Shown here: positions 1,110 through 53,177 of the stretch, piece by piece
Position numbering within the stretch: position 1 is the stretch's first letter
Layout: the number at the start of each line of letters is the position of its first letter
Translations under genes and position numbers: made by a program
The notes under the pieces: model-generated
What the model was told of the DNA's origin: nothing
Seen by the model: only the letters and a program-made list of their open reading frames with translations
Database searches by the model: none
Assembly: GCA_031552405.1 (NCBI GenBank)
Contig: JAVBMN010000020.1
Coordinates: 12,860-76,859 of the forward strand
DNA length: 64,000 nt
Reading direction: 5' to 3'
Origin: Bacteroidaceae bacterium
Lineage (GTDB): Bacteria > Bacteroidota > Bacteroidia > Bacteroidales > Bacteroidaceae

Positions 1110-1114
1110 CCAAG

Positions 1115-1630
1115 CTACTCTATCCGCTCTAAGAAACTGCCCGGAATGTAAGTCGTGGCAAGCGAAAAAAGGCCTTCCAGGCGCACCACCACACGTTTGT
1201 GTCCCTGAAGACGTATCAGCTCACCCTCAATACCGGCAAACTCACCTTTAACCACACGCACGCGGTCGCCTCGCTTCAGGTTCTCGTTCAGTACCTGAAT
1301 AGCCTCTTCGGAGAAATCAACCAGGAACTTGAAGTCTTCCATCTGCTTATTCGGGATAATCAGGAAGTTGCCTGTCTCACGACTGTGGATAAAGCTCAGT
1401 TTCAGGAAATGCTCCGTAACAAGCTGACGGCAAGTATGCTCATCGGCACGGATAAACACGATGCCCGGCACTACGGGACGCTCCACTTCGATACGCTTCC
1501 CATTACGCTCCATCATCGTCTTGCGGAAGGGAATGAAATACTCCACCTGGAGTGCATCCAACTGCTCCTTGATCCGTTTCTCAAGCTGATAACGGGTGCG
1601 GGCAGCATACCAATGGAGTTCTACATTCAT
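1115..1630 (-). CDS. UpxY-family (NusG-like) transcription antiterminator
   Basis: The N-terminus WYAARTRYQLEKRIKEQL and a C-terminal KOW-like GDRVRVVKGEFAGIEGELI are typical of NusG/UpxY. Start trimmed to MNVELHWY because a TACTTTTG -7 box lies at 1662..1669 on the minus strand. Confidence 0.75.
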   Translation of the reverse strand: MNVELHWYAARTRYQLEKRIKEQLDALQVEYFIPFRKTMMERNGKRIEVERPVVPGIVFIRADEHTCRQLVTEHFLKLSFIHSRETGNFLIIPNKQMEDFKFLVDFSEEAIQVLNENLKRGDRVRVVKGEFAGIEGELIRLQGHKRVVVRLEGLFSLATTYIPGSFLERIE

Positions 1631-1661
1631 ACGTAATACGTTTACCTTTTTAAAGAAGGTG

Positions 1662-1669
1662 CAAAAGTA
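1662..1669 (-). promoter_or_regulatory. Bacteroidetes -7 promoter box (TACTTTTG) for the UpxY-like gene
   Basis: Matches TAnnTTTG on the minus strand, about 32 nt upstream of ATG 1630. Confidence 0.5.
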
Positions 1670-1741
1670 ACACTTTCCCAGCAAAGAAAAAATCCTTACC
1701 TATTCTTTTTTCGTTATTTCCCCTATTATCCCTAACTTCAT

Positions 1742-3880
1742 TCAAAGCGTTTGCTCCACACCCTTCATGGAAAGGGAAATTCGGCTACGGCTGTGATCCA
1801 CCTCAACGACCCGCACCCGTACATGTTGATGCAGGGACACCACCTCCGCCGGACTTGACACAAAACGATCCGTAAGCTGAGACACGTGTACCAGCCCGTT
1901 TTCGTGGATACCTATATCCACAAAGCAGCCAAAATTAGTAAGGTTGGAGATAATCCCGTTCAATTCCATTCCGGGCCGAAGGTCGTGAATGCTTCGCACA
2001 TTGCGGTCGAACTCAAACACCTTGATAGGCTTACGCGGATCACGCCCCGGCTTCTCCAGCTCAGACATAATATCCGTCAAAGTGGGCATTCCCACCTCAC
2101 CCTGCACATAATCAGCCAGTTGAATCTGTTTTCTGGAAGCTGAATCTGCCATCAGCTGCGGTACAGAACACCGTATATCACGAGCCATACGCTCCACAAG
2201 TGCGTAACGTTCCGGGTGTACCGCCGAGTTGTCAAGCGGGTTCTCGCCATCCGGAATACGTAAAAAGCCTGCGCTCTGCTCGTAAGCCTTGGCGCCCATG
2301 CGGGGCACTTTCATAAGTTCGCGGCGTGAGTGAAAGGGGCCGTTTTCTGTCCTGTAATTCACAATATTCTGAGCCAGCTGAGGCCCAAGGCCCGAAATAT
2401 AGCTGAGCAAGTGGGTGCTGGCAGTGTTCACATTTACCCCCACGGCATTTACGCAGTTGATTACCGTCTGGTCGAGGGAGCGTTTCAGTTTCGCCTGATC
2501 CACATCGTGCTGGTACTGTCCTACACCGATCGACTTAGGCTCTATCTTCACCAGTTCGGCCAACGGGTCCATCAGTCGGCGCCCGATAGATACAGCTCCG
2601 CGCACGGTGACGTCATAGTCGGGGAACTCCTCACGGGCCACCTTGGAGGCAGAATAGATAGAAGCGCCGTTCTCGCTTACCACGAAAACCTGTAATTCAC
2701 GGTCGTAACGCTGCGAGGTGACAAACTGTTCCGTTTCTCTTCCTGCCGTTCCATTCCCTATTGCAATGGCCTGAATGGCATATTGCTCTACCAACTTGGC
2801 AAGCTTACGCCCCGCCTGCTGCATGTCGCCCTTAGGAGGATGCGGATAGATCGTTTCATTGTGCAGCAAAACGCCCTGTGCATCCAAGCATACCAACTTA
2901 CAACCGGTACGAAAACCGGGGTCTATACCCAGCACGCGCTTCTGGCCCAGAGGGGAAGCCAGCAATAGCTGGCGCAGGTTTTCGGCAAATACTTTTATGG
3001 CTTCTTCGTCGGCTTTCTCCTTGGAAAGAGCCGAGAACTCGGTTTCAATGGACGGTTTCAACAAGCGCTTATAAGCATCGTGCACCGCAATCTGCACCTG
3101 CCCGGCACAGGGACCGGTACCGCGTACAAAGGAACGCTCGATCTGTTCCACGCACGGTTCCTCTTCGGCGGGGGTAACAGATACGCGTAAGAACCCCTCT
3201 TTCTCACCACGTCGGATAGCCAGCAAACGATGAGAAGAACAACGGCGAAGGGGCTCTTCAAAGCTGAAATAATCGCGATACTTCACAGCCTCTTCTTCTT
3301 TCCCCTTCACAACCTTGGAGATGATAAGGGCTTCACGCTCAAAATAACGACGTACCCGGTTGCGACTGATTTCATGTTCGCTGACACGCTCAGCTATAAT
3401 ATCGCGGGCGCCCTGCAAGGCTTCTTCTACAGTTTTCACATCGCCCTTCAGGAAAGACTTGGCACGCACATCCGGCTGTGCCTCGTGCTGCGCCTGAAGG
3501 ATATTGGCCAAAGGCTCCAACCCTCGCTGGCGAGCCACCTCAGCACGGGTACGACGCTTAGGCTTGAAGGGAAGATAGAGGTCTTCCAGCTCCACACTAT
3601 TCCAGATATCACGGATGCGCTGTTCCAGTTCCGGAGTCAGCTTTCCCTGTTCGGTAATGGTGGAGAGAATGGTTTCTTTCCGCTTCTGCAACTCACAAAG
3701 CTTTTCGTATTGTTGGTGGATCTGCTCGATGATCACCTCATCCAACCCGCCGGTCACCTCTTTACGGTAACGACTGATAAAGGGGATTGTAGCTCCCTCG
3801 CCCAGAAGCTGTAGGGTACGTGCCACCTGCGACACGCTAATCTGGAGCGCCGTGGCGATCCGTGAGTGGAAAGATTCCAT
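1742..3880 (-). CDS. tex: Tex-like transcription accessory protein (YqgF/HhH/S1 domains)
   Basis: 712 aa. The N-terminus is VARTLQLLGEGATIPFISRYRKE, the central region is RuvC/YqgF-like (LGIDPGFRTGCK), and the C-terminus has an S1 domain (GIISNLTNFGCFVDIG). Confidence 0.9.
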   Translation of the reverse strand: MESFHSRIATALQISVSQVARTLQLLGEGATIPFISRYRKEVTGGLDEVIIEQIHQQYEKLCELQKRKETILSTITEQGKLTPELEQRIRDIWNSVELEDLYLPFKPKRRTRAEVARQRGLEPLANILQAQHEAQPDVRAKSFLKGDVKTVEEALQGARDIIAERVSEHEISRNRVRRYFEREALIISKVVKGKEEEAVKYRDYFSFEEPLRRCSSHRLLAIRRGEKEGFLRVSVTPAEEEPCVEQIERSFVRGTGPCAGQVQIAVHDAYKRLLKPSIETEFSALSKEKADEEAIKVFAENLRQLLLASPLGQKRVLGIDPGFRTGCKLVCLDAQGVLLHNETIYPHPPKGDMQQAGRKLAKLVEQYAIQAIAIGNGTAGRETEQFVTSQRYDRELQVFVVSENGASIYSASKVAREEFPDYDVTVRGAVSIGRRLMDPLAELVKIEPKSIGVGQYQHDVDQAKLKRSLDQTVINCVNAVGVNVNTASTHLLSYISGLGPQLAQNIVNYRTENGPFHSRRELMKVPRMGAKAYEQSAGFLRIPDGENPLDNSAVHPERYALVERMARDIRCSVPQLMADSASRKQIQLADYVQGEVGMPTLTDIMSELEKPGRDPRKPIKVFEFDRNVRSIHDLRPGMELNGIISNLTNFGCFVDIGIHENGLVHVSQLTDRFVSSPAEVVSLHQHVRVRVVEVDHSRSRISLSMKGVEQTL

Positions 3881-3946
3881 TAGATTTATAAAGACCTTAT
3901 ATAATTAGTAACACGAAGATATGGGAAAACTAAATTCCCTGTCGGG

Positions 3947-3954
3947 CAAAGGTA
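3947..3954 (-). promoter_or_regulatory. -7 box (TACCTTTG) for tex
   Basis: TAnnTTTG on the minus strand, 67 nt upstream of ATG 3880. Confidence 0.45.
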
Positions 3955-4018
3955 ACCATAAATCCGCAAAACGCAGACAATCCCCCTACAAATATCGTGG
4001 GCCATAAAGGAAATATCG

Positions 4019-4026
4019 TATCTTTG
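4019..4026 (+). promoter_or_regulatory. -7 box (TATCTTTG) for the DUF418 gene
   Basis: TAnnTTTG, 24 nt upstream of ATG 4050. Confidence 0.55.
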
Positions 4027-4049
4027 CCCCTCCTAAAATACCATTTAAA

Positions 4050-5225
4050 ATGAATCAGATTACCGGAACCAAAGAGCGGATACAGGCCGTGGATGCCCTG
4101 CGTGGCTTTGCCGTAATGGGAATAATGTTGCTGCATAACATTGAGCATTTCAATTTTTACTCCTTCCCCACCCCTCCTTCTGAGCTTATCGCATCCATCG
4201 ACCGTACGTTGTGGGATATGTTGTTCTTCCTTTTCTCTGGAAAAGCATACGCTATCTTCGCACTTCTTTTCGGACTCACCTTCCACATACAAAGCCAGAG
4301 TGCAGCGAAACGCGGCGAAGATTTCAAGAACCGTTATATGTGGCGATTGGTATTACTCTTCGGATTCGGATGCATAAATGCCAGCTTCTTCCCCGGCGAA
4401 ATCCTTGTGCTATATGCTATCATAGGCTTTGTGTTGGTTCCCGTACGACACATGAACAACAAAACCGTATTCCTCATCGCCCTGGTACTGATGCTGCAAC
4501 CTCTGGAATGGGGCAAGGTGGTTTACTCACTCTGCAACCCCGAAGCCAATCCGCAGCAGATGATTTATTCGCTGGGACAAGTATATCCGCAACTGGGAGG
4601 AGATTCGCTGATAGAAATGATAAAGGCCAATCTGATCACCGGCCAGCTGGCCAGCCTCAACTGGGCATGGTGCTACGGGCGGGTATTCCAAACGGCCTCT
4701 CTCTTCATGCTGGGTATGTTACTGGGAAGAAAGGGGCTGCTACGCTTCTCGAATGAAGCCTCTGCATTTTGGACACGGGCGCTGTGCCTGTCGCTTCCTG
4801 CCGCCATCGGGCTGTATTATTTCAAGGAGTTTCTGTATCCGTGGATTGAGAATCCATTCTTAAAAGACACGATGCGCACCATCCTCAACTCATGGTACAA
4901 TTTATTCTTTATGGTATGTATTGTAGCCGGATTCTTGCTATTATACTGGACAAGCAAAGGAAAGGCACTGCAGATACTGGCTCCTTATGGACGAATGAGT
5001 CTCACGGATTACCTCATGCAGTCTGTCATAGGTACGTTCCTCTACTTTGGCTACGGTTTGTCACTGCATAGTTCCTGCGGAACCACATACAGCCTGTTGA
5101 TCGGAATCGCCTTCTTGACAGGCCAGGTTGCCTTTGCCCATTGGTGGTTCCGCCGTTTCAAACGAGGACCACTGGAAACGTTATGGCACAAAGCCACCTG
5201 GATGCAATGGAAGCGTACAGCGTGA
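4050..5225 (+). CDS. DUF418/YeiB-like polytopic membrane protein
   Basis: 391 aa, multi-TM, with the N-terminal RIQAVDALRGFAVMGIMLLHNIEHF signature of the DUF418 family. Confidence 0.7.
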   Translation: MNQITGTKERIQAVDALRGFAVMGIMLLHNIEHFNFYSFPTPPSELIASIDRTLWDMLFFLFSGKAYAIFALLFGLTFHIQSQSAAKRGEDFKNRYMWRLVLLFGFGCINASFFPGEILVLYAIIGFVLVPVRHMNNKTVFLIALVLMLQPLEWGKVVYSLCNPEANPQQMIYSLGQVYPQLGGDSLIEMIKANLITGQLASLNWAWCYGRVFQTASLFMLGMLLGRKGLLRFSNEASAFWTRALCLSLPAAIGLYYFKEFLYPWIENPFLKDTMRTILNSWYNLFFMVCIVAGFLLLYWTSKGKALQILAPYGRMSLTDYLMQSVIGTFLYFGYGLSLHSSCGTTYSLLIGIAFLTGQVAFAHWWFRRFKRGPLETLWHKATWMQWKRTA

Positions 5226-5243
5226 GAATAAGTCCTCAACGAC

Positions 5244-5828
5244 CTATCTCACCCCCAGCACTTTATGAAGTTGTATGGAAAGTTTCCACGCCGGATGAAG
5301 CAACAGGTATTTAATTAGCCGGGACTGCAACTCCGAGTTTTGCTCTGCATCCCCCGTATCACAGGGCTGAAGGTAATAATGAAGCGCAGGGATTGCCAGA
5401 TAATGCTCCAAATCTTCCTGCCCTGTATAAACCACCTTCAGCTCATGGCAGGAAGTCAGCACAGGAGCTCCCTGATTAGAGCCGAATTCATACTTGGGCG
5501 ACCATGTAACCCAATCGATCCCAACAGGAAGCAAATGTGTACCGTTCGTTTCCACAGCCACATATTTCTCCTCTTGTTTCAGTAACTGTATAAATGACTC
5601 ATCCAGAAACAGAGAAGGCTCCCCCCCGGTAAGCACCACATGGCGAGCCGGGTATTCGCATACACGATTCACAATATCTTCATCGCTAAGCCACTCCCCC
5701 TCCTTGTGCCGGGTATCACAGAAGGGACACTGCAGGTTACACCCCGAGAAGCGAACGAAGACCGATGGCGTACCGCTATAAAAGCCCTCCCCCTGGAGAG
5801 AATAGAAGATCTCATTAATCTTCTTCAT
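5244..5828 (-). CDS. queE: 7-carboxy-7-deazaguanine synthase (radical SAM)
   Basis: YSLQGEGFYSGTPSVFVRFSGCNLQCPFCDT matches the QueE N-terminal cluster motif. The gene overlaps queD by 14 nt. Confidence 0.85.
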   Translation of the reverse strand: MKKINEIFYSLQGEGFYSGTPSVFVRFSGCNLQCPFCDTRHKEGEWLSDEDIVNRVCEYPARHVVLTGGEPSLFLDESFIQLLKQEEKYVAVETNGTHLLPVGIDWVTWSPKYEFGSNQGAPVLTSCHELKVVYTGQEDLEHYLAIPALHYYLQPCDTGDAEQNSELQSRLIKYLLLHPAWKLSIQLHKVLGVR

Positions 5829-6147
5829 ACACAGCGGTATTCCTTTCCGACTCCTGCACCTCTGCCTTGTAACAATGAGGTATTTGTTCCACTACCCAGC
5901 GGGCGATATTTTCAGCCGTAGGATTAAAGGGAAGCACATCGTTCAGGTTCTTATGATCCAGTTTACCTTGAATCAAATCCTTAATATGTTTAAAATCAAT
6001 CACCATCCCATCCGCATTCAACTCTGCCGATTTACAGTGTACAGTGATGATCCAGTTGTGCCCATGCAAATGCTCGCATTTACTGGCATACCCCAATTGC
6101 AATGAGTGAGAAGCCGATATTTCAAGGCGCTTAATTACATAATACAT
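5815..6147 (-). CDS. queD: 6-carboxy-5,6,7,8-tetrahydropterin synthase
   Basis: 110 aa with CEHLHGHNW and the overall PTPS/QueD pattern. It sits upstream of and overlaps queE. Confidence 0.85.
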   Translation of the reverse strand: MYYVIKRLEISASHSLQLGYASKCEHLHGHNWIITVHCKSAELNADGMVIDFKHIKDLIQGKLDHKNLNDVLPFNPTAENIARWVVEQIPHCYKAEVQESERNTAVYEED

Positions 6148-6177
6148 AATTCAGTAATTCATTATATCTTTACGCTA

Positions 6178-6185
6178 CAAATATA
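6178..6185 (-). promoter_or_regulatory. -7 box (TATATTTG) for queD-queE
   Basis: TAnnTTTG on the minus strand, about 31 nt upstream of ATG 6147. Confidence 0.5.
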
Positions 6186-6283
6186 CTATATTATCCCGGC
6201 ACATACGGAAAATGGAATGTTTTTTAAACCCAATAAAACATAATGCACTGGTAATCAACGCCAGAACAAGCAATAAGAGAGAC

Positions 6284-6375
6284 TTTTCATCGCAGGCCTG
6301 AAGTTCTGGAATCGCAGGCCTAAGATTATAAAACTTCAGGCCTGCGACTTGAGAACTTCAGGCCTGCGATGAAAA
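6284..6375. repeat. 92-bp palindromic cluster of four CGCAGGCCTGAAG-type words
   Basis: 6284..6306 (ttttcatcgcaggcctgaagttc) is the exact reverse complement of 6353..6375. Two degenerate copies lie between them. Confidence 0.8.
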
Positions 6376-6796
6376 AGCGGATGCCCTACGGTAAAAATTT
6401 CCCCTCCCCGCGATTCATAAATTCACACAGAGTATCCTCACAACTCTAGAACCTTCCTTACAATCTTCATACCGTAAAATAAGGTAAAATTAACCCTTTT
6501 TGAGGTATCGAAATGAGCAAACTAAACCCTCATCACACTCTTCATACCGGAAACATCAAGTCCATCAAACAAAAGGATAGTGTTAATATATCGAAAAACA
6601 AGCACAATTATACGCAAAGTTTATTGGTATATTCCCAAAAAAACACTTACTTTGCCTCGATTTCTAGCCGAATATGCCCGCCTGGGAATTAACTATTTTT
6701 CAAGTGTAACAGATAACAACTACAAAAATGATACTACTCAAAGAAATATTCTTTGGTAATTTGCATTTTTTGAAGAGTTCAAAAAAAAGACGATCT

Positions 6797-7699
6797 ATGC
6801 ATATCAAAAAAGCCAAACTCATTCTATTATTGAATGGTATTGCCCTCTTTGCACCCATTTCATTATTGGCTCAGAATCAAAACGAGATTGAAACTCGCAG
6901 AGAAATAGAGAGCAGAAAGAATGCCCTTGACGCTGCCGATGAATACGGAAAAGAGCTGTACAACTTCATTGTCGACAGTCTTCAAAGAGGAGAACAAAAC
7001 GAGAATTACGAATTCACCCCCGACGAAGACAAACTCCCCCAAAGAGGATATGTAGATCAGCTACTTGGTCTTGAAGACTTAAGCCTGCCGCCGCTGGAAA
7101 CATTTATGGCATCCGTGTATGACAACGGAAGCGTAAAAGAAAAAGTGGCATTTCAAGAACAAATGGAAGCTGAATATCGCCACGTAAAGGCTGAGTGGTG
7201 GGATTACGTTCGTTTCCATGCCCAATATGCCTACGGGTACTTTTACAATTTCAACAGCTATTATTCCGATTACATGCCTGCCACCACCTCCAACGCTCAG
7301 CACAGCTGGAGCATCGGAGCCGACCTCATCGTTCCTTTGGGCGATTTGTTTGGAAGAAAGCATAAGCTAAGGACACATAAGGCTAAAATAGACCAGGCCA
7401 TCTACCTCCAAGAGGCTGTAGTTGAAGAACGAAAACTGAGAATTCTCAATGCATACAACTCTATTCTTGAGAATCTGGCTGCCGTAAAACCACGTGCTGA
7501 AACCGTAGCACTCTACGATGCAAACATGAAAGTGTCGGCTAACGACTTTATCAATGGTAATACCTCTATCATCGAGCTTTCACTGGAAAGACAGCGTCGA
7601 TCCACTGCAATCGTTCAGTACCAACAGGGACGTGTAGCCCTGTTCAGCGCCGTGCGAACACTTGAGTTGCTCACCAATATCAAAATCATTAAAGACTAA
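6797..7699 (+). CDS. TolC-family-like outer membrane protein (single OEP repeat) with signal peptide
   Basis: Start trimmed to MHIKKAKLILLLNGIALFAPISLLAQ (signal peptide). The C-terminal half (DANMKVSANDFINGNTSIIELSLERQRR...LFSAVRTLELL) resembles one outer-membrane efflux protein repeat. Confidence 0.5.
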   Translation: MHIKKAKLILLLNGIALFAPISLLAQNQNEIETRREIESRKNALDAADEYGKELYNFIVDSLQRGEQNENYEFTPDEDKLPQRGYVDQLLGLEDLSLPPLETFMASVYDNGSVKEKVAFQEQMEAEYRHVKAEWWDYVRFHAQYAYGYFYNFNSYYSDYMPATTSNAQHSWSIGADLIVPLGDLFGRKHKLRTHKAKIDQAIYLQEAVVEERKLRILNAYNSILENLAAVKPRAETVALYDANMKVSANDFINGNTSIIELSLERQRRSTAIVQYQQGRVALFSAVRTLELLTNIKIIKD

Positions 7700-24300: not shown

Positions 24301-27300
24301 ATGAAAAGTAAATTATTTATGTTCATTATGGCTTTGACCATAAGCACCTGTCCCCCAACGGCACAGGCACAGAATGTGATTCCGTACTTACCGATGCAAA
24401 ACGATTTCGGTGGAACGGCAGTGGCTGACCTGGCAACTTTTGAGCCTTCGCTCAGTCAGTTCACTCTCGAAGTAACGGCAGATGCAACAGGTACGCCTGT
24501 AAGCATTGATATGCTGGGCATTACTTACACACCACAAATCTCCACGGATCTACGCTTCGTGCTCTACAAAGAGAAAGTGTACATTTACGAAGGTGACGAA
24601 TACAAAGAAACACAGATTCCATCCCTACAGATCTCTTACAGCGGAAGCAACCTTCTTCAGAATCCGGGCTTCGAAACGGTAGTATCACTGGGAAGCGTAT
24701 GGAAGGATGGGATATACTGGAATGCGTACACTGACACAAGAACGGAAGCATGGGGAGCCACTTCCTCCACTTCGATTCGTAATGGCTCATCGTACGGCAC
24801 TTACCGTATGTTAATGCACAATAACGCCCGTTATTTGACACAACAGCTGGCCACAGGCGAAGTAAAGCCAAACACCTATTACAAAGTAGCTTATCATTGG
24901 GCCGAAGCCGCAGGCGCTAACGATGGCGGATTGTACACCATAGAATTGGGCAGTACTCAGTTTGCAAGTGACTACCTTTCCATTCCGGCACATACCGTAA
25001 CCAATACAGAAAATGCATGGCGTGACTTTGAAACAACCTTCAAAACCGGATCAAATGTCGACATAAATAATCCCGTTTGGTTTACTCTGCACAGAAGCAA
25101 TTCAAAAATAGACTACCTTGACGATATTTCACTATTGGAAGGTACAGCCGCAGTAGGCATCACCGGCGCAGTTTCGGCACAGTATGCCGCTGAAGTAGTG
25201 GCTGCTCCGGAAATGACACCCAACTATGCCGCAGGTGATGCATTTGACATGTATCCTTACTATCTGGTCAATCCTAACTTTGATGTGGATTATTCGGGAT
25301 GGCAAAAAACCACGAACGGCACCATACAACGCGGAACCGGTATAAAGGCCGATGGTACGCTTTTACCTGCCGGAGACGGGAAATTACAGGTATGGGGAAT
25401 CACAAGCGCAGGAAATATTTATCAATCTCTTTCAGATCTTCCTAACGGGAAATACAAACTAAGGGCTGCTGTGTATGCCAGTCCGGTCACTCAGGATGGG
25501 CTTTACCTGTATGCCAATCAGCAACAAACGGTGATTACTGATGCGGTGGCAACCACCAATGCCTATATTGAAGTGGAGAATGCAATTGTGGTAGACGGGA
25601 ACCTGGAGTTTGGCTTGAAACTCACTGTTGCTCCAAGTGCCACTGCTGAAGTGGATTTGGACAAAGTTAGTCTGTTCTATTACGGTCCTGATCACTCTGC
25701 TCAGGCCGAAGCCATCCTGGCGCAGATTGCCTCTATTGAAACGTTGCTTGAAAGCCCGATGAATACCGCCATAAAAGCCGAGTTAACAGCTAAGAAGAAT
25801 GCAGCCTACAATGCAGCAACCGCCTCTCCGCTTGTTCCTTCTGACTTGGAAACAACCGCTACTGCATTGAGTAGTGTGATTACTACAGCTAATGCTTCCG
25901 CTGCAGCATACGTAATTCTGGACAATTTCCTCAACGGTGTTGAATCTGCATTAGACTCTTACAACAGTTATTCAGGTTACGCTACCTATGCCGCCATCGT
26001 TCTTACTGCAAGAACTGCTTACACCAATGGAACAACCGCTGATGCAGATATCCAAACTGCAATCCTCGCCCTCAAAGCAGCCAAAAACAACTGCAAGTAC
26101 TCAGACGGAGCAATCCATAACGACCCTAATCTGCTTTATGGATGGGATGCCCAAAAAGACGGCACAACTACCCCCGAAGAGGCAGGATGGATCGCCTCAC
26201 AGGATGATCTTATTTGGGGAGGACAGCTTTCGGGAGCTAATGAAGACAAAGATGCATTATACCGTACCAATTCTCTTGATAAATATGCTTTCTATGCCAA
26301 ATCCAGAAAGAACAATGAAGTGATTACATACGCATACCCAATCTACCTAGAAGCTGGCAAAACCTATTTCTTTGAAGGAAAGAACTGGCGTAGAAACGGG
26401 CAACAAGCCGCCGATGCAGCCCATGTCACATTTGCCGTTTCATCTACCCCTTCCAGTACAGGCACTATCTTGAACTCACAAACAATACTTTGCAATAAGG
26501 AAGGATACCTTGATTATTCCTTCTCTTTTGATGTGACCACCACAGGGGTTTATTACCTTGTCCGTTATGCGGAAGAACCTACATCAAGTAATTACCAGGA
26601 TGTATCTGCCGATTTATCCCTAGTTGAAGCCTATACACTTACCGACGGAGCAGCCACTGTGGTTGGTGAACTCACCCCATCCATCATCACAGAGCTTGGA
26701 GTTGCCGATATTATCTCTGTAGATCTTACCAATACCACTGCTTCCAATGCTGTAATACTAACCCTTAAAAATCCCAACACTTTAGTACACAATGCACCTG
26801 CCAATGTGACAACCAATGGGATTAAGGTATCTAACAATGAATTTGTAGACACCCCCAACTTGACTGACCTGCAACCTTTCTCAGCCACAGGCGATATTGC
26901 TGGTGCAATATCCTACCAACGTGCCTTCACCGGAGTAGCTAACGAAACTGACGGAGCAACTGGAGGATGGGAAGTATTCAACGTGCCGTTTAAGGTAACC
27001 AGCGTAAAAGCCACCATCGATGGTAAAGAGTACGAATACCTGCCTTATACAGAGTGGAAGGCCACGGATGATGCAACGGTAGAAGGTTGTGGATTCTTCT
27101 GGATTAAGAAGGCCACAGAGGGTAGCAATGCTATCAGCAGCAGTGTAGAGAGTCTTGAGGATATGACTGCGAATGAACCGTATCTTATCGCATTTCCCAG
27201 AATATCTATTGAAGGACGTCCACAGTTTAATGTAAATGGTGAAACCTTCACTTTTAGCGGCGAAAACGGTGTAGAGGCAACTATTAATCTTCAGCCCGCA

Positions 27301-27717
27301 GAAGCAGGTAACTTCAGCTTCAACCAAAGCTATCTGGAAGGTACTATGCAGAATGTGTATCTGCTGAATGCTGCCGGTGATGCATTTGTAAAAGAGGCAG
27401 AGGCAACAATCGTTCCTTTCCGTCCTTTTGTGACATTTGATAATCCAATAGGTGCAGCTCCTTCGCAGTTCCTTATCAATGGCAATAATGATGTGACTAA
27501 TATAGAAGAAGTGAAGGCTCGCCTTGCTGCTGCCAAGATGATTATTACTGTAGCTGAGAACGGAGTAACTATCTACTCGGAAAATGAAGGCACGGTATTG
27601 GTATATGACCTGAACGGTGCATTAGTGAAGAGCATAGCTATCAGCAATGGTGAGAACTTCATATCTCTCCCGAGCGGTGCATACGTCATCCACAATAAGA
27701 CAGTTATCGTAAAATAA
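24301..27717 (+). CDS. Secreted modular protein A1; no catalytic domain recognised
   Basis: Signal peptide ending AQAQ. N-terminal IPYLPMQNDFGG domain, NPGFE and NPNFD CBM4/9-like modules, and alanine-rich helical repeats. About 330 aa of the C-terminal region are shared with A2. The tail VLVYDLNGALVKSIAISNGENFISLPSGAYVIHNKTVIVK resembles the type A T9SS sorting domain. Confidence 0.75.
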   Translation: MKSKLFMFIMALTISTCPPTAQAQNVIPYLPMQNDFGGTAVADLATFEPSLSQFTLEVTADATGTPVSIDMLGITYTPQISTDLRFVLYKEKVYIYEGDEYKETQIPSLQISYSGSNLLQNPGFETVVSLGSVWKDGIYWNAYTDTRTEAWGATSSTSIRNGSSYGTYRMLMHNNARYLTQQLATGEVKPNTYYKVAYHWAEAAGANDGGLYTIELGSTQFASDYLSIPAHTVTNTENAWRDFETTFKTGSNVDINNPVWFTLHRSNSKIDYLDDISLLEGTAAVGITGAVSAQYAAEVVAAPEMTPNYAAGDAFDMYPYYLVNPNFDVDYSGWQKTTNGTIQRGTGIKADGTLLPAGDGKLQVWGITSAGNIYQSLSDLPNGKYKLRAAVYASPVTQDGLYLYANQQQTVITDAVATTNAYIEVENAIVVDGNLEFGLKLTVAPSATAEVDLDKVSLFYYGPDHSAQAEAILAQIASIETLLESPMNTAIKAELTAKKNAAYNAATASPLVPSDLETTATALSSVITTANASAAAYVILDNFLNGVESALDSYNSYSGYATYAAIVLTARTAYTNGTTADADIQTAILALKAAKNNCKYSDGAIHNDPNLLYGWDAQKDGTTTPEEAGWIASQDDLIWGGQLSGANEDKDALYRTNSLDKYAFYAKSRKNNEVITYAYPIYLEAGKTYFFEGKNWRRNGQQAADAAHVTFAVSSTPSSTGTILNSQTILCNKEGYLDYSFSFDVTTTGVYYLVRYAEEPTSSNYQDVSADLSLVEAYTLTDGAATVVGELTPSIITELGVADIISVDLTNTTASNAVILTLKNPNTLVHNAPANVTTNGIKVSNNEFVDTPNLTDLQPFSATGDIAGAISYQRAFTGVANETDGATGGWEVFNVPFKVTSVKATIDGKEYEYLPYTEWKATDDATVEGCGFFWIKKATEGSNAISSSVESLEDMTANEPYLIAFPRISIEGRPQFNVNGETFTFSGENGVEATINLQPAEAGNFSFNQSYLEGTMQNVYLLNAAGDAFVKEAEATIVPFRPFVTFDNPIGAAPSQFLINGNNDVTNIEEVKARLAAAKMIITVAENGVTIYSENEGTVLVYDLNGALVKSIAISNGENFISLPSGAYVIHNKTVIVK

Positions 27718-27735: not shown

Positions 27736-27915
27736 ATGAAAACAAAGAAAGAATATAACCGGCCTCATATAGAGATTATTGAGCTGGAACTGGAAGAAAT
27801 AATGATCACAGCTTCGCAACTTAAAGAAAGCTTTGGAGATAAAAGTGGAGTAAACCTCCAGCAAACAAACTCTTTCTGGAACGAAAACAACATAATAAAA
27901 GGCGACGAAGAGTAG
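27736..27915 (+). CDS. Conserved small acidic protein (59 aa), unknown function
   Basis: Below the 60 aa track cutoff and found by hand: MKTKKEYNRPHIEIIELELEE... It starts 18 nt after the A1 stop. Its paralog at 49814..49996 sits in the same position behind A2 and differs by about 12 synonymous third-position changes. Confidence 0.6.
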   Translation: MKTKKEYNRPHIEIIELELEEIMITASQLKESFGDKSGVNLQQTNSFWNENNIIKGDEE

Positions 27916-27950
27916 TCTCTCATAGACTATAGTTAGTAAGTAAGTGAAAA

Positions 27951-27987
27951 GCCGGAGGAGAACGGTCACGTTCTTCCTCCAGCTTTT
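27951..27987 (+). terminator. Terminator-like hairpin after the A1 small ORF
   Basis: gccggaggagaac-ggtcac-gttcttcctccagc followed by tttt. Confidence 0.6.
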
Positions 27988-47343: not shown

Positions 47344-49794
47344 ATGAAAAGTAAATTACTTATGTTCCTTGCGGCTTTGACCGTAAGCGCCTTTGCCACA
47401 ACGGCACAGGCACAGAATGTGACTCCGTATTTACCGATGCAAAACGATTTCGGTGGAACGGCAGTTACCAACCTCGCAACTTTTGAGCCTTCGCTCAATC
47501 AGTTTACCCTTGAAGTAACAGCAAGTGCAGTGGGTACACCCGTAAGCATTGGCATGCTGAGTATTACTTACACGCCGACAACCTCTACTGAGGTACGCTT
47601 TGTACTTTACAAAGGTAAGGTGTATATTTACGAAGGTGGCGAATATAAAGAAACGCAAACACCTGCTGGCAATCTTCTTCTGAATCCGGGTTTTGAATTG
47701 GGCACTACTGTTGGTGCAGGAACCAACAACTGGAATGCCTACGATGCTACCCCAACTCTTAGTTGGAACAATACTACTGGTGCTGGCTCTGTTAGAAACA
47801 CAGAAGGTTCTATAAAATCAGGTACTTACAGTTTGTTAATGCGCGACCCATTTGTATATCTAACACAAAATTTGCCAGCAGGAAAGATTAAGCCAAACAC
47901 TAATTACAAAGTGGCATATTATGCGCGTATGTTTGATAACAACCGAGCAATTGCCACTTACCAATTAGAACTGGGAAGTACCGAACGGGGAGTGGATTAT
48001 GGTACAGTAGTTGCGCACACATCAACCAACGCAACATATACAGAAGTTATCCGCTATATCCAAACCAATGATTTGGTTAATGAAAGTGAGGACGTTTGGT
48101 TTTGCCTGCATCGTACAACTAAGACAAGGAATGATGCCTACGATTGGGTCGACGATTTTTCATTAGTGGCAATTGGTATCTCCGGCGCAGCTTCGGCACA
48201 GTATGCTGCCGATGTAGTGGCGGCTCCGGAAGGAACTACACCCAACTATACTGTAGGTGATGTACTTGACATGTATCCTCACTTCCTAATCAATCCTGAA
48301 TTTGATCTTTATACAGGAACTGGCAACAATGTGTCCTATACAGGTTGGAGCAATACAGTAGGTGCACAACAAACCAAATTAAGCACTGGTGCAAAAGGAA
48401 ATCCAATTGTAATTGAAGCAGCTCCTAACAATCATTGGCAATTATGGAGCGGTAATGCGATGAAAGGTAAAATATCTCAAGGAATTTCGAATCTTCCAAA
48501 TGGGAAATACAAGGTTAGCGCTGCCATTGTTGCAACGAGCCTAACAACGATATCCATATATGCAAATGAAGGACGGAAAACTATTGGAAATAACGGATTT
48601 CATGAAACCACAGGAATAGTGATTGACGGAACCCTAGAAATTGGTTTAGATATCAATTTATCAGCAGGGCAAACTGTTGACTTCGACCACTTCTCTTTAC
48701 ATTATCTTGGTCCTAATTATACTACATTTAATAACGGAGCAGCTGCCGTGACCGGTGAAATCACTCCATCTATTGTAACAGAACTTGGAGCTGCTGGCAT
48801 TACCTCTGTAGATCTTACTAATGCCACCGCTACCGGCGCTGTGATACTAACCTTTGACAATCCTAATACCTTGGTATATAATGTACCCGAAAATGTGACA
48901 ACCAATGGTATTGAAATATCTAACGGTGCATTTGTGGGTGAACCCAGCCTGACCGACCTGAAACCTTTTGCTGCTGCAAACGGCATTACCGGTGCAATAT
49001 CCTACCAACGCGCCTTCACCGGAGTTGCCAATGGAGCAACCGGAGGATGGGAAGTTTTCAACGTGCCGTTTAAGGTAACCAGCGTAAAAGCCACCATCAA
49101 TGGTACAGAGTACGACTACCTGCCTTATACAGAGTGGTATGCTGCGGATGATGCCACAGTGGAAGGCAAAGGATTTTTCTGGATTAAGAAGGCCACCTCA
49201 GGTAGCAATGCAATCAGCACCAGTGTAGAGAATCTTTCGGCAATGGAAGCCAATGAGCCGTATCTCATCGCGTTTCCGAAGACAACTATTGAAGGACATC
49301 CACAGTTTAATGTAAATGGTGAAACCTTTACTTTCAGTGGAAACGGTGTAGAGGCTACCATTACTCTTCAGCCCACACAGGCCGGTAATTTCAATTTCCT
49401 CCAAAGCTATCTGGGAGGTACTGTTCAGAATGCATATCTGCTGAATGCTGCGGGTGATGCATTTGTAAAAGAGGCAGATGCAACAGTTATTCCTTTCCGT
49501 CCTTTCGTGACATTTGGTAATCCAGTGGGTGTAGCTCCTTCGCAATTCCTTATCAATGGGAATAACGATGTGACTAATATCGAAGAAGTGAAGGCACGCC
49601 TGGCTGCTGCTAAGATGATTATTACTACGGTTGAGAACGGAGTAACTATCTACTCGGAAAATGAAGGCACGGTATTGGTGTATGACCTGAATGGTGCATT
49701 AGTGAAAAGCGTAGCTATCAGCAATGGTGAGAACTTCGTATCCCTCCCTGCCGGTACATACGTCATCAACAATAAGACAGTTATCGTAAAGTAA
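47344..49794 (+). CDS. Secreted modular protein A2, a shorter paralog of A1
   Basis: The N-terminal ~110 aa and the C-terminal ~350 aa are near-identical to A1. It lacks the ~320 aa central insertion of A1 and has the same VLVYDLNGALVKS...NNKTVIVK tail. Confidence 0.75.
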   Translation: MKSKLLMFLAALTVSAFATTAQAQNVTPYLPMQNDFGGTAVTNLATFEPSLNQFTLEVTASAVGTPVSIGMLSITYTPTTSTEVRFVLYKGKVYIYEGGEYKETQTPAGNLLLNPGFELGTTVGAGTNNWNAYDATPTLSWNNTTGAGSVRNTEGSIKSGTYSLLMRDPFVYLTQNLPAGKIKPNTNYKVAYYARMFDNNRAIATYQLELGSTERGVDYGTVVAHTSTNATYTEVIRYIQTNDLVNESEDVWFCLHRTTKTRNDAYDWVDDFSLVAIGISGAASAQYAADVVAAPEGTTPNYTVGDVLDMYPHFLINPEFDLYTGTGNNVSYTGWSNTVGAQQTKLSTGAKGNPIVIEAAPNNHWQLWSGNAMKGKISQGISNLPNGKYKVSAAIVATSLTTISIYANEGRKTIGNNGFHETTGIVIDGTLEIGLDINLSAGQTVDFDHFSLHYLGPNYTTFNNGAAAVTGEITPSIVTELGAAGITSVDLTNATATGAVILTFDNPNTLVYNVPENVTTNGIEISNGAFVGEPSLTDLKPFAAANGITGAISYQRAFTGVANGATGGWEVFNVPFKVTSVKATINGTEYDYLPYTEWYAADDATVEGKGFFWIKKATSGSNAISTSVENLSAMEANEPYLIAFPKTTIEGHPQFNVNGETFTFSGNGVEATITLQPTQAGNFNFLQSYLGGTVQNAYLLNAAGDAFVKEADATVIPFRPFVTFGNPVGVAPSQFLINGNNDVTNIEEVKARLAAAKMIITTVENGVTIYSENEGTVLVYDLNGALVKSVAISNGENFVSLPAGTYVINNKTVIVK

Positions 49795-49813: not shown

Positions 49814-49996
49814 ATGAAAACAAAGAAAGAATATAATCGCCCTCAGATAGAGGTTATTGAACTAGTGCTCGAAGAAACAATAGTTACCGCCTCTAGTGTG
49901 AAGTCGCAATTTTCGGCTGACAAAGAGGGAGTAGGACTCCAAGAAACCAATTCCTTCTGGAATAAAAACAACTTTCTGGATCGAAGTGATGAATAA
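49814..49996 (+). CDS. Conserved small acidic protein (60 aa), paralog of 27736..27915
   Basis: MKTKKEYNRPQIEVIELVLEE... It starts 19 nt after the A2 stop. See the paralog entry for the synonymous-change argument. Confidence 0.6.
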   Translation: MKTKKEYNRPQIEVIELVLEETIVTASSVKSQFSADKEGVGLQETNSFWNKNNFLDRSDE

Positions 49997-50043
49997 CTGA
50001 AACAGTTACTGTTTCGTATAGTTACAAAACAGTAATGTAATAA

Positions 50044-50167
50044 GATCCGCATCTCCTCTCTCCTTCCTTTTAGTTTAGTTCGCACGACAGATGACTTTCC
50101 ACTCAAATGAAGAAATATAGTAAATCTACACAAAATAGTAAGGAGAAGGGGAGATGCGGATCTTTTT
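50044..50167 (+). terminator. Long-range hairpin plus T5 after the A2 small ORF
   Basis: gatccgcatctcc at 50044 pairs with ggagatgcggatc at 50150..50162, then ttttt follows. The loop is about 78 nt. Confidence 0.45.
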
Positions 50168-50256
50168 CAAGTTGCAGTGCCCTATTCACAGGCACTTTGA
50201 TTCCATAGCATCCTTTTTTGACGGTGGAGCATTCCCCCTTTCATCTCCTCCCGCTC

Positions 50257-50372: not shown

Positions 50373-53177
50373 ATGAAAAAAACAAAGTTATTCTTTTTAC
50401 TTGCCGTCCTGGCAGCATGGTGCAACCTTGCCCCGCTGCATGCGGCCGCGATTCCTTACCTGCCGGTAAAGGCGAATCTGGAAGGAAGCACAATTGACCT
50501 AGCCGCCTTCGAACTGCCTGTCGGCGATTTCAGTATGGACATCCAGTGCAATGCCGGAGCCGGCATTTCCATTTGTGGCGTATATGAATACACCGCCGAA
50601 GGAACCAGCCTGCGTATTGCCAGAAAGAACGGGACAGTGGTAGTATACGAAGGAAACGCGTATAAAGCCACATTAACTTCCGCCCTCACTCCCATTGCCG
50701 GTATTACCAATGCTACTTCGGCCACGTTCCTTGACGGAGCTGCCTACGGCCAGCAGGTTACATTGGGTGTAGAGGATTATTGGGATATGACCCTGTATGT
50801 AATAAACCCAGAGTTCGATAATGGAACAATGGTGAACAAAGCCCCTACAGGTTGGATACAAACCACTTCTGCGAGCACCTCTAAAATTAGTACAGCGGCA
50901 AAAGGAGACGGTTCCGTGATCTTTGATGGCCAAAATCACTGGCAGATCTGGAATGGGGGTGGTCTTACCGGAAAGGCTTACCAGGTTATTGCCGGATTGC
51001 CCTTAGGTAAGTATACATTCAAAGCAGGCCTGTATGCAGCTATTGCCGGTCCCGTGCATCTATATGCCAACAGTAGCCGCATTGAAGTGACGAATGACTC
51101 TTCGGCCATTTACGAAGTAGAAGCCATTGTAGTAGACGGTACACTGGAAATAGGTATGGACATTGCCACCACCGGAGGTACCACGCTGGAATTTGACCAC
51201 ATCACACTGGAATATTACGGCGCCGACATGAGTGCAGTAATCAAATCCTTTCAGGAACTTGTGGAAGCAGCCCAGGCAAGCGCAGCCCAGCACATGAACG
51301 TAACGGTGAAGTCTAAACTGAATGCCGCCATCTCAGCAACAGAAACCATCCTGCAGAACCCCACGGAGGAAGCTATCGTACAGGCATCCCCCATACTTAA
51401 ACTGGCCAATGACACTGCGAAACTATCCATTACCGAATATACGAAGTTCAAGGCAGCCATTGACACTTCCGAGGTACACATGGCCATTCATACTGGTCTG
51501 TCTGGGTTTGCCGCATATTCTACTGTATATAATAACACAAAAGCTGCATACAATGCTGCACAGATACAAGGTGATTCCATAAACAGCTTGATCTCTGCAT
51601 TGACAGTGGCAGAAGTGGCCTGCCTCCTGACTCAGGAAGCTCCGTATGATGCTACGTTCGTCATTGTAAACCCCAGCTTTGAAAACTCTGACAGCTACAA
51701 GGGTTGGGTAAACAACGGAATGCAGACGCAAAGTAACGCTTCTTTTGAACTGAAAGTAGGAAACCGTTATGTAGAGAAATGGATTGGTGATGGAAACATG
51801 CTTGCCGATGCCAGTATTACCCAAACCATCCGCAACCTCCCCAACGGTGCTTATGAACTGACCATCGTAGGTTTCTGTACCCAAGGCGGACTTGGTGCTG
51901 AAGGCGGATTCCTTTTTGCCAACAAAGGAAAAACACAGATGGGCGAAGCGGGCGAATATACTGTAGAAGCTGTAGTTATGGACAATACACTCACCTTTGG
52001 TATCAAAACAGAGAGTTGCACAGGCAACTGGATTGCTGCCGACAACTTCCAACTCCGATTCATTGGTTATAATCTCTCGGTAGCTGTTGCCACATTGCAG
52101 GAAATGATTACTGAAGCAGGAAATCTCTATAGTAGCGGAAGCCCTATGTCACAAAGTGCACTTGATGCACTGGAAACGGCCATAAGCACAGCAAACGATG
52201 CGTGCAGCGCTCCTACGGAAGAAGGCATCAAGGCGGCTTCAACCGCCCTAAGCACAGCAATGGATAACGTGGAAACATCCATCCAACAGTACGCCAACCT
52301 GGTAGCTGAGCTCGACAGACTTGCCGATCTCTGCGACAACGGCGCCGAACTGTACCCTGATGGACACGAAGCTTTTGTAAATGTGTATTTTGAAGTAGCC
52401 GAGCAGTTTGGTGAAGGAGCGTATGACTCAGAAGGTGTCACCGCAGCCATCAAGCAACTGAAAGAGGCTGAGTTTAGCTGCTACCTGTCTTCTACTCCTC
52501 CCATCGATGCGACTTTCATCCTGAAAAACCCGAGCTTCGAAGATGGCAATGCCAGCTGGACTGTAAAATCAGGTGTACTCAGCACCAGTTCTGCAAACTG
52601 CATAGACGGTTTGAAAGCTGGTAACACCTGGAATGCCACCTATAGAGATACTGACTTCTATCAGGAAATCAGCCTGCCCGCAGGAGAGTATGAACTGACT
52701 GCTGTGATGCGTGTAGGTGTTGTGACCAATCAGTACATCTATGCAGAAATCGGAGATCAGAGATCCAAATCTCAACCCGTAGAATTCGCCGGAAACTGGG
52801 GTGAAGCAGGCGATTTAAGCGCCTGGAACGATATGTCACTAGCCTTTACAGTACCCAGTAGCGGCACCGTACGCATCGGAGCAGCCTGTGAATTGGGCGA
52901 TTTTAGTGGAGACGCCTATTTCCAGATTGACAACTTCCGCCTGACTCTCATTGATAAGCTTTCTTCTACAGAAACGATACAAGAGGATGATCACTCACTC
53001 CGCGTAGCCGGAAGCAAGGGTGGCGTATATGTGACAAGCCCCGCAAGCTGCACAATCGCAATCCATGCCATAGACGGAGTGTTGCTAAAAACTCTGGAGA
53101 TCAGCGAAGGCGAAACCTTCATCGACCTGCCACAAGGCACATACCTGATCGGTGGCAAGATAGCTATCGTCTTATAA
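50373..53177 (+). CDS. Secreted modular protein C; no catalytic domain recognised
   Basis: Signal peptide, then AIPYLPVKANLEG. Modules begin VINPEFDNG...NHWQIWNGG, IVNPSFENSD and ILKNPSFEDGN. The tail is AIHAIDGVLLKTLEISEGETFIDLPQGTYLIGGKIAIVL. Confidence 0.75.
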   Translation: MKKTKLFFLLAVLAAWCNLAPLHAAAIPYLPVKANLEGSTIDLAAFELPVGDFSMDIQCNAGAGISICGVYEYTAEGTSLRIARKNGTVVVYEGNAYKATLTSALTPIAGITNATSATFLDGAAYGQQVTLGVEDYWDMTLYVINPEFDNGTMVNKAPTGWIQTTSASTSKISTAAKGDGSVIFDGQNHWQIWNGGGLTGKAYQVIAGLPLGKYTFKAGLYAAIAGPVHLYANSSRIEVTNDSSAIYEVEAIVVDGTLEIGMDIATTGGTTLEFDHITLEYYGADMSAVIKSFQELVEAAQASAAQHMNVTVKSKLNAAISATETILQNPTEEAIVQASPILKLANDTAKLSITEYTKFKAAIDTSEVHMAIHTGLSGFAAYSTVYNNTKAAYNAAQIQGDSINSLISALTVAEVACLLTQEAPYDATFVIVNPSFENSDSYKGWVNNGMQTQSNASFELKVGNRYVEKWIGDGNMLADASITQTIRNLPNGAYELTIVGFCTQGGLGAEGGFLFANKGKTQMGEAGEYTVEAVVMDNTLTFGIKTESCTGNWIAADNFQLRFIGYNLSVAVATLQEMITEAGNLYSSGSPMSQSALDALETAISTANDACSAPTEEGIKAASTALSTAMDNVETSIQQYANLVAELDRLADLCDNGAELYPDGHEAFVNVYFEVAEQFGEGAYDSEGVTAAIKQLKEAEFSCYLSSTPPIDATFILKNPSFEDGNASWTVKSGVLSTSSANCIDGLKAGNTWNATYRDTDFYQEISLPAGEYELTAVMRVGVVTNQYIYAEIGDQRSKSQPVEFAGNWGEAGDLSAWNDMSLAFTVPSSGTVRIGAACELGDFSGDAYFQIDNFRLTLIDKLSSTETIQEDDHSLRVAGSKGGVYVTSPASCTIAIHAIDGVLLKTLEISEGETFIDLPQGTYLIGGKIAIVL

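Follow-up and report, generated by a model that had tools for sequence, protein, structure and literature searches.

The stretch of DNA analyzed here (the window; 64,000 nucleotides, C37:12860-76859, where C37 is contig JAVBMN010000020.1) comes from a Bacteroidaceae genome, G000, whose assembly comprises 3.79 Mb in 66 contigs. It carries two small open reading frames (ORFs), each directly behind a gene for a large protein of the T9SS (type IX secretion system) cargo type. We read these ORFs, with a probability of about 0.7, as genes for LppA-like precursor peptides, consisting of a leader and a core, of a Bacteroidales pathway of the LPP type, a class of RiPPs (peptides made by ribosomes and modified after translation). 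The gene layouts are best read as a Bacteroidales variant of that pathway, in which the precursor genes would be dispersed and co-inherited with genes for surface proteins. Gene clusters for linear polyphosphorylated peptides (LPPs) encode the precursor LppA, the HprK-like kinase LppK, the discrete RiPP recognition element (RRE) LppB, the SipW-type Ser/His/Asp peptidase LppS, the MsbA-like exporter LppD and the nucleoside triphosphate (NTP)-transferase LppN (Popov et al., Nat Commun 2026, PMC13381572).

The small ORFs and their cargo genes

An earlier interpretation made from the letters alone (the sequence-only reading) had reported a 59-residue and a 60-residue ORF at the same place behind two cargo genes, and both ORFs are present with the translations it gave. 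Small ORF 1 (27736..27915, forward strand; 59 amino acids, aa) is a predicted LppA-like precursor on the grounds of its translation, the purifying selection acting on it and its family membership. Its predicted leader, MKTKKEYNRPHIEIIELELEEIMI, spans ~27736-27807 and its predicted core, TASQLKESFGDKSGVNLQQTNSFWNENNIIKGDEE, ~27808-27912, a division set by the YxxPxI motif and the leader/core register, with a predicted position for the exact cleavage site. Small ORF 2 (49814..49996, forward strand; 60 aa) is the predicted paralogous precursor, 63% identical at the protein level, with a predicted leader, MKTKKEYNRPQIEVIELVLEETIV, at ~49814-49885 and a predicted core, TASSVKSQFSADKEGVGLQETNSFWNKNNFLDRSDE, at ~49886-49993. 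Both peptides have an isoelectric point of 4.8 and are free of Cys. Their longest hydrophobic run is 4 residues, and they therefore have neither a signal peptide nor a transmembrane segment, in agreement with the earlier description of acidic peptides devoid of both.

The gene upstream of small ORF 1, A1 (24301..27717, forward strand), encodes a protein of 1138 aa with a signal peptide and no Pfam domain, and its paralog A2 (47344..49794, forward strand; 816 aa) precedes small ORF 2. The C-terminal domains (CTDs) of the two proteins are encoded at ~27460-27717 and ~49537-49794, and the DNA of the A2 CTD is 91% identical to that of A1. The T9SS type A CTD model TIGR04183 matches residues 1089-1131 of A1 weakly; scored against the whole A1 and A2 proteins it reaches 17.7-17.9 bits, below its cut-off of 23, and in a six-frame search of the genome 24.1 bits, just above the cut-off, with a match that covers model positions 13-57 only. 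Apart from the CTD, searches of Pfam, NCBIfam and PDB sequences with A1 and A2 gave no match.

The gap from the cargo stop codon to the start of the small ORF measures 18 nt after A1 and 19 nt after A2. Directly after small ORF 1, a GC-rich hairpin with a U-run at the end of its 3' arm (27947..27987, forward strand; RNA fold -24.9 kcal/mol, z = -5.2) is a likely terminator of the cargo and small-ORF transcript, and downstream of small ORF 2 a long hairpin with a U-run behind it (50036..50175, forward strand; -46.2 kcal/mol, z = -4.9) is likewise a likely terminator. No terminator-like site was found in the window between a cargo stop and the small-ORF start. Given a strong hairpin and U-run after each small ORF and none in between, the cargo gene and the small ORF probably share one transcript.

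The aligned codons of the two window copies comprise 22 that are identical, 16 that differ at synonymous sites only and 21 that change the residue; the pattern of synonymous differences noted in the sequence-only reading is thus present, at a higher count than the roughly 12 codons given there. Over 14 paralog pairs, the ratio of nonsynonymous to synonymous substitution rates (dN/dS, Nei-Gojobori) lies between 0.07 and 0.41 in frame, with one pair at 0.91, and at ~1-1.9 when the same nucleotides are read in the other two frames as an off-frame control. Purifying selection is therefore apparent on this larger set of homologs, and in this frame alone. When the ORF is split, pooled dN/dS is 0.17 for the leader (the N-terminal 23-24 codons) and 0.24 for the remainder, the core, while dN itself is 0.089 and 0.27, about three times higher in the core. 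Between the window copies, DNA identity falls from 0.91 in the CTD to 0.82 over the first 24 codons and to 0.59 over the rest of the ORF, next to 0.53 in unrelated downstream DNA; the frame, the length, an aromatic FW motif and the acidic end survive this divergence. Because in-frame dN/dS is low and frame, length and motifs are kept despite the divergence, the small ORF is, on its substitution pattern, a protein-coding gene.

The nearness of the core's DNA identity to that of unrelated sequence, and the constant co-duplication of ORF and CTD, would also fit a sequence that does not function as a protein, either conserved as a 3' untranslated region (UTR) or an RNA element or left over from hitch-hiking with the CTD. 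We consider this highly improbable, since 20 paralogs and ~150 distant relatives preserve frame, start, length and motifs, dN/dS stays well below 1 in this frame only, the core is constrained as well as the leader, and protein motifs persist where synonymous sites are saturated. The earlier claim that the gene is conserved and translated, and not a 3' UTR, is borne out by the same in-frame signal and by the width of the family.

Using a hidden Markov model built from the first matches, we identified 20 members of the small-ORF family in G000. All 20 are preceded, at a distance of a few to ~30 nt, by a large same-strand gene, which extends to the whole genome the placement first described behind A1 and A2. 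The products of the upstream genes end in a common tail motif, LPxGxY(F/V/I)I(N/G)xxK..V. A search with a profile of this tail returned 21 genes at ≥80 bits, 20 of which have a small ORF behind them; the exception is followed by another cargo-like gene. None of the 18 genes with a related short-hairpin tail (score ≤65) has a small ORF behind it, and the same applies to the remaining ordinary TIGR04183 matches. This gap in tail score is partly circular because the 20 positives themselves served to train the CTD profile. One of the 18 genes lies in the window at 50373-53177 and encodes a 934 aa DUF5013 protein with the short-hairpin tail IDLPQGTYLIGGKIAIVL.

The cargo paralogs have only their last 250-300 residues in common. 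Across paralogs, peptide identities correlate with CTD identities (Mantel r = 0.82, p = 2e-4), and the C-terminal module and the small ORF were therefore copied as a unit. Judged from this correlation, the small ORF and the cargo C-terminal module are duplicated together, giving rise to the 20 copies. Read-through of the A1 stop codon into the small ORF was considered and rejected, as 5/20 pairs are in frame, approximately the chance level. Outside the window, the module family also shows decay: one cargo gene has the same CTD and no small ORF (C65:60370-62685), one small ORF is shortened to 34 aa (C1:89539-89655), and three small ORFs stand behind mere cargo remnants of 109-184 aa (C49:11013-11567, C44:1380-1778 and C34:24031-24360).

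A leader/core peptide family and its gene neighborhoods

Searched exhaustively with the profile, a set of 1.84 billion representative proteins yielded 159 further proteins at E≤1e-3, almost all of them 30-90 aa long and matched from residue 1. Near the start of 224 of 227 family sequences stands Y-x-x-P, with I, M, V, T or L two positions after the P in ~90% of them. The motif is followed by an alternating acidic/hydrophobic strand, E-V-I-E-h-E-x-E, then by two hydrophobic residues (Y+15 and Y+16) and by A-x-S, with A at Y+17 in 58% and S at Y+19 in 63% of the sequences. Conservation reaches ~Y+20 and then collapses into a variable tail rich in Gly, Ser, Thr, Asp and Asn, which often closes with an aromatic motif and acidic residues. 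A junction of two small residues and a Ser is present in all 19 paralogs examined, as TAS in both window copies. In these features, the layout of the family is that of a lasso-type RiPP leader. The motifs of the window copies, YNRPHI and YNRPQI, conform to the recognition rule of lasso and LPP systems, [Y/W]xxPx[L/V/I/F/A] (PMC13381572).

Pfam and NCBIfam searches with the two window peptides returned no match, and no model in them covers the family. Below threshold, six members matched the lasso precursor model NF033524 (lasso_PadeA_fam), two matched StsA and two the SSH RaS-RiPP precursors. Searching PDB sequences with the family profile gave nothing useful, a word-index search with a single peptide returned only the peptide itself, and a profile scan of the genome contig collection yielded two weak matches only. 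The sequence-only reading had concluded that no family could be assigned; this is now outdated, the closest described family being that of the LPP precursor LppA (PMC13381572). Other genomes of the genus hold 1-3 copies, and two further Bacteroidaceae genera are also positive, with their copies behind genes of the same tail type. Across the order the distribution is patchy (17/401 genomes, 13/237 genera), and several unrelated genomes hold multiple copies.

The family members, peptides of ~50-60 residues, are almost always encoded beside a gene for a large surface or secreted protein, and they occur in three gene contexts. In the first, the gene directly upstream encodes a large protein of secreted type whose short tail is CTD-like (G000, G555, G775, G576, G777, G271 and G159). 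Metagenomic contigs show this layout with LRR_5, RicinB/MucBP and DUF5013 proteins, and two tandem pairs occur on one of them. On one such contig (L088, an ERZ15609948 contig; 1232-7156), tandem LRR_5 paralogs have nearly identical C-terminal tails and a small ORF follows only the second; it is thus a marker of where the tandem pair ends, not of each copy. In the second context, the small ORF stands directly upstream of a 400-700 aa fimbrillin-like or DUF1566-type lipoprotein gene. Homologs of the window ORFs thus exist and all 20 in G000 follow T9SS-type cargo genes, but a general rule to this effect fails, as about half of the distant members precede fimbrillin-like lipoprotein genes without a CTD.

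In the third context, peptide-maturation genes are found within 4 kb of a family member. This is the case in eight genomes, all but one of which (G012) are placed in seven different families of the order, against a chance expectation of ~0.16 (estimated for ~60 small ORFs outside G000, 8 kb windows and genomes of ~3 Mb). Direct adjacency is seen in four of them, with the gene orders small ORF-PqqD-HprK-related kinase-ATP-binding cassette (ABC) transporter in G271, PqqD-small ORF-HprK-peptidase in G585, protein-small ORF-HprK-peptidase-PqqD-369 aa-ABC in G576 and, in a radical-SAM variant without the kinase, ABC-PqqD-radical SAM-small ORF-peptidase in G474. In G530, two successive pairs of small ORF and lipoprotein gene precede HprK-peptidase-PqqD-371 aa-ABC, the nearer small ORF ending ~2.3 kb before HprK, and G675 has the order small ORF-lipoprotein-ABC-peptidase-PqqD-HprK. 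In G018 and G012, a family member lies ≤3.5 kb from the enzymes. The G012 locus (L051, G012:C1:2746400-2758600; 354-6234) has a PqqD-369 aa-HprK-like block that adjoins Wza-like and Wzc-like polysaccharide export genes, and the family member closes the gene run, immediately upstream of a lipoprotein gene. PqqD is also encoded in 23/23 peptide-bearing genomes; we dropped this co-occurrence as a discriminator, since PqqD is too common to be informative (33/41 related genomes).

The G474 locus (L106, G474:C84:1-6000; 193-4055) brings together the same leader type, the same SipW-like peptidase, PqqD, an ABC exporter and a radical-SAM enzyme, and its precursor has a Cys-bearing core, MKKQKKPYQKPKLEIIEMEPEERIASCLVIYYSSHTYQGCNEIQ... 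The module of leader, RRE and peptidase thus seems, from the gene content, to be reused there with a different modifying enzyme. A member located between a radical-SAM enzyme and a SipW-type peptidase, with PqqD and ABC genes upstream, is also what would be expected if the window ORFs were precursors of another RiPP class, such as radical-SAM cross-linked peptides, that shares a common leader type. The weak StsA and SSH RaS-RiPP matches and the two SPASM-type enzymes encoded in G000 point in the same direction. This origin is nonetheless very unlikely for the window peptides, which are Cys-free like nearly all of their paralogs. One SPASM-type enzyme of G000 adjoins a sulfatase, as is typical of a sulfatase maturase, the other lies on an integrase-flanked island without a peptide gene, and the usual neighbors across lineages are the kinase, the peptidase, PqqD and the ABC exporter, not a radical-SAM enzyme.

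The maturation cassette and the proposed pathway

G000 holds one intact copy of a kinase-peptidase-PqqD-exporter set (C37:90637-93989), and an enzyme set clustered as in LPP loci is thus present. It comprises an HprK-like P-loop kinase-like protein (C37:90637-91509; weak TIGR04355/TIGR04352 matches), a SipW-type signal-peptidase-like protein (C37:91527-92015; weak TIGR02228 match, with the Ser in GNSMNP, the His in LHR and the Asp in GDG), the only PqqD-type RRE of the genome (C37:92040-92306; PF05402, 1.4e-14) and an MsbA-like ABC half-transporter or exporter (C37:92316-93989; PF00664 and PF00005). The catalytic spacing of the peptidase-like protein, S36/H76/D103 by our own count, resembles that of LppS, S29/H68/D93 (PMC13381572). 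We found no precursor gene, hidden or otherwise, beside the cluster. Across the genus and the family, a block of SecG, kinase, peptidase, PqqD and ABC genes is kept, normally without an adjoining precursor.

The lasso B2 protease (PF13471) had no match in the genome, and a single 565-aa ORF on another contig gave an Asn-synthase-like match above the cut-off. A lasso peptide identity was rejected, as there is no B2 protease and no cyclase, and with neither a macrolactam cyclase nor a B2 protease the product would be linear. A 380 aa nucleotidyltransferase of PF14907, similar to LppN, is encoded outside the window and outside the kinase/peptidase/PqqD cluster (C58:15278-16420), at the end of a polysaccharide-synthesis-like locus among glycosyltransferase-like, UDP-sugar dehydrogenase-like and epimerase-like ORFs, an arrangement that echoes the link of LPPs to capsule loci in Bacilli.

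In the pathway that we propose, the peptide would be made from the transcript of the preceding T9SS-type cargo gene, as suggested by the gene layout. Its leader, with a K-rich start, the Y-x-x-P-x-I motif and the acidic strand EVIELE, would be bound as a β-strand by the single PqqD-type protein, judging from the motif and from the biochemistry of LPP and lasso systems. The HprK-like kinase would then phosphorylate the Ser just past the leader in the small-small-Ser junction (TAS), after which the SipW-type Ser/His/Asp peptidase would cleave off the leader and the MsbA-like ABC exporter would carry the acidic, Ser/Thr-rich core of ~30-35 residues out of the cytoplasm.

Several observations weigh against this pathway. 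The cassette lies ~29 kb past the nearer window copy and 51 kb from the other, unlike published LPP loci, where the precursor is in the cluster. The cluster is present in 33/41 related genomes and the peptides were detected in only 7/41, a disparity that points either to other substrates of the cassette or to precursors too short and divergent to be picked up. After YxxPx[I/V/L], the leader departs from the LppA consensus YxxPxVLxHQxIxFET; the HprK-like and peptidase proteins reach weak profile scores only; and a search of PDB sequences with the PqqD protein matched no solved RRE. Finally, a role as precursor does not by itself explain the strict adjacency to surface-protein genes.

That adjacency could be accounted for if the exported, phosphorylated peptides were cognate partners of the co-encoded surface proteins, a proposal that we put forward tentatively and hold to be less likely true than false. 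After crossing the inner membrane through the ABC exporter, the core would encounter the T9SS cargo or fimbrillin-like lipoprotein that belongs to it, and the peptide would be needed for the sorting, anchoring or activity of that protein, or would signal which one is being made. The co-copying of precursor and cargo module suggests, without proving it, joint action of the exported peptide and its co-encoded surface protein.

The same pairing could instead reflect an unmodified cytoplasmic partner of the cargo (a chaperone, an export-competence factor or an adaptor) that binds the CTD or C-terminal module and has no relation to the PqqD/kinase cassette. Such a partner would suit the confinement of all 20 copies to one divergent CTD subclass, in which 20/21 genes at ≥80 bits have a copy (on a profile trained on those same positives), the recurrence of the arrangement in relatives and metagenomes, the shared duplication history of peptide and CTD, and the small size and acidity that the peptide has in common with some secretion chaperones. 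We examined this possibility by AlphaFold on a fusion of the CTD, a 7 residue linker and the peptide, with the TAA read as a residue and an alignment of 15 cargo paralogs; the fusion is a natural one, because the A1 stop codon TAA and small ORF 1 share a frame. The cargo part (the last 300 aa) was predicted at pLDDT 85-95 as a β-rich domain and a CTD β-sandwich. Foldseek matched the CTD model to the RgpB CTD (5ag8_A; probability 0.92, TM-score 0.31) and found no convincing structural neighbor for the ~220 aa β-rich domain ahead of the CTD, even though it is confidently folded. The peptide (residues 304-366 of the fusion) remained at pLDDT 28-45 and did not dock on the cargo, a weak test, given the short linker and the lack of alignment rows for the peptide. 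Modeled alone, it showed no secondary structure (pTM 0.18), a predicted disorder that is expected of a precursor.

The models thus lend support neither to a folded chaperone nor to a partner docked on the cargo. Moreover, Sec takes the cargo out of the cytoplasm and the peptide is devoid of a signal peptide, roughly half of the distant members stand before lipoprotein genes that lack a CTD, and a cytoplasmic partner would leave unexplained the lasso-type leader motif and the adjacency to PqqD, kinase and peptidase genes. We therefore regard it as unlikely. Among the roles listed in the sequence-only reading (chaperone, inhibitor or immunity-like protein, anti-adaptor, RiPP-like precursor), the RiPP-like precursor is favored by the leader motif, the enzyme adjacency in other genomes and the disorder, and a folded chaperone or inhibitor is left unsupported.

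If the window ORFs are LppA-like precursors, the family would extend into Bacteroidota a RiPP class that its 2026 description limited to Bacillota. The cassette of PqqD, HprK-like, SipW-like and ABC proteins, found in 33/41 sampled related Bacteroidales genomes, almost never has a visible substrate gene beside it, and the peptide family supplies plausible substrates for this orphan system, encoded by small ORFs that annotation misses. The pairing with T9SS cargo and fimbrillin-like lipoprotein genes is the most interesting part of the finding. Its strictness provides a testable lead to the role of the phosphopeptide, which points to the cell-surface biology of gut, rumen and oral Bacteroidales. 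Should the peptides indeed be cognate partners of these surface proteins, a biological role would follow both for LPP-type peptides and for the orphan PqqD/kinase/peptidase cassette of most Bacteroidales.

Comparison with known systems

The literature was searched for T9SS chaperones and for PqqD/HprK systems of Bacteroidales, with no specific result. Among cargo-specific partners, PorP/SprF-like proteins are encoded after type-B CTD cargo genes and are outer-membrane β-barrels with signal peptides, and VirE1 is a small, acidic secretion chaperone; secretion chaperones are folded. Like these, the window peptide is encoded directly downstream of its cargo gene and co-inherited with it, and it is small and acidic in the manner of VirE1. 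It differs in being a predicted disordered 59 aa peptide without a signal peptide or predicted docking.

Prochlorosins also have many dispersed precursor genes with a conserved leader and a hypervariable core, located away from a single set of maturation enzymes. The scattered, multi-copy precursors and the one enzyme set of G000 resemble that arrangement. The chemistry differs, as prochlorosins acquire lanthionine rings by ProcM, and so does the context, as their genes are not known to be tied to particular neighbors.

Phosphorylated lasso peptides follow a YxxPxL rule, have a hydrophobic residue at position -2 and are phosphorylated on Ser3 in BsfA of Bradymonas (PMC10368454). The family described here shares with the paeninodin type a YxxPxL-type motif at a fixed distance from the core, the weak NF033524 matches (six members), a hydrophobic Ile or Val at leader position -2 and, at the level of enzymes, a counterpart of the PqqD-like B1 protein, which hands the precursor to a homolog of HPr kinase and to the leader peptidase. 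It differs in that no B2 protease is encoded, a peptidase of the signal-peptidase type would remove the leader, a linear product is expected and no Asp or Glu is fixed at core positions 7-9.

The closest system is that of the LPPs. Their precursor LppA has a length of 35-200 aa, with a conserved N-terminus, YxxPxVLxHQxIxFETxxS, and a variable C-terminus (PMC13381572). The core starts with A-Q-S and LppK adds several phosphates to core Ser3, while leader removal by LppS requires presentation by LppB (PMC13381572). LPPs were described as restricted to Bacillota, near capsule loci and of unknown role (PMC13381572). The first difference is thus one of phylum, Bacteroidota not being mentioned in that description (PMC13381572). 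Past YxxP, the leader here reads IEVIEhExE(G)hhAxS instead of VLxHQxIxFETxxS and does not match the full consensus, and the Ser follows the Tyr by 19-20 residues instead of 18. The precursor genes mostly lie outside the enzyme cluster, scattered in 20 copies and tied to T9SS-type cargo or fimbrillin-like lipoprotein genes. The cluster has the order kinase-peptidase-RRE-exporter, with the NTP-transferase elsewhere in the genome.

The likenesses extend from the enzymes to the peptide. Both systems comprise a discrete PqqD-type RRE, an HprK-like kinase, a homolog of SipW/archaeal-type peptidases and an MsbA-like exporter, without a cyclase, and a PF14907 NTP-transferase is present in many of the genomes. 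Both precursors combine a conserved N-terminal leader that carries YxxPx[V/I/L] with a highly variable C-terminal part, and in both a small residue followed by Ser stands just past the leader end (a predicted end in the Bacteroidales family), at nearly the same distance from the Tyr. Finally, both are linked to cell-surface loci, through capsule loci in Bacilli and, in the Bacteroidales family, through surface-protein genes and one Wza/Wzc locus.

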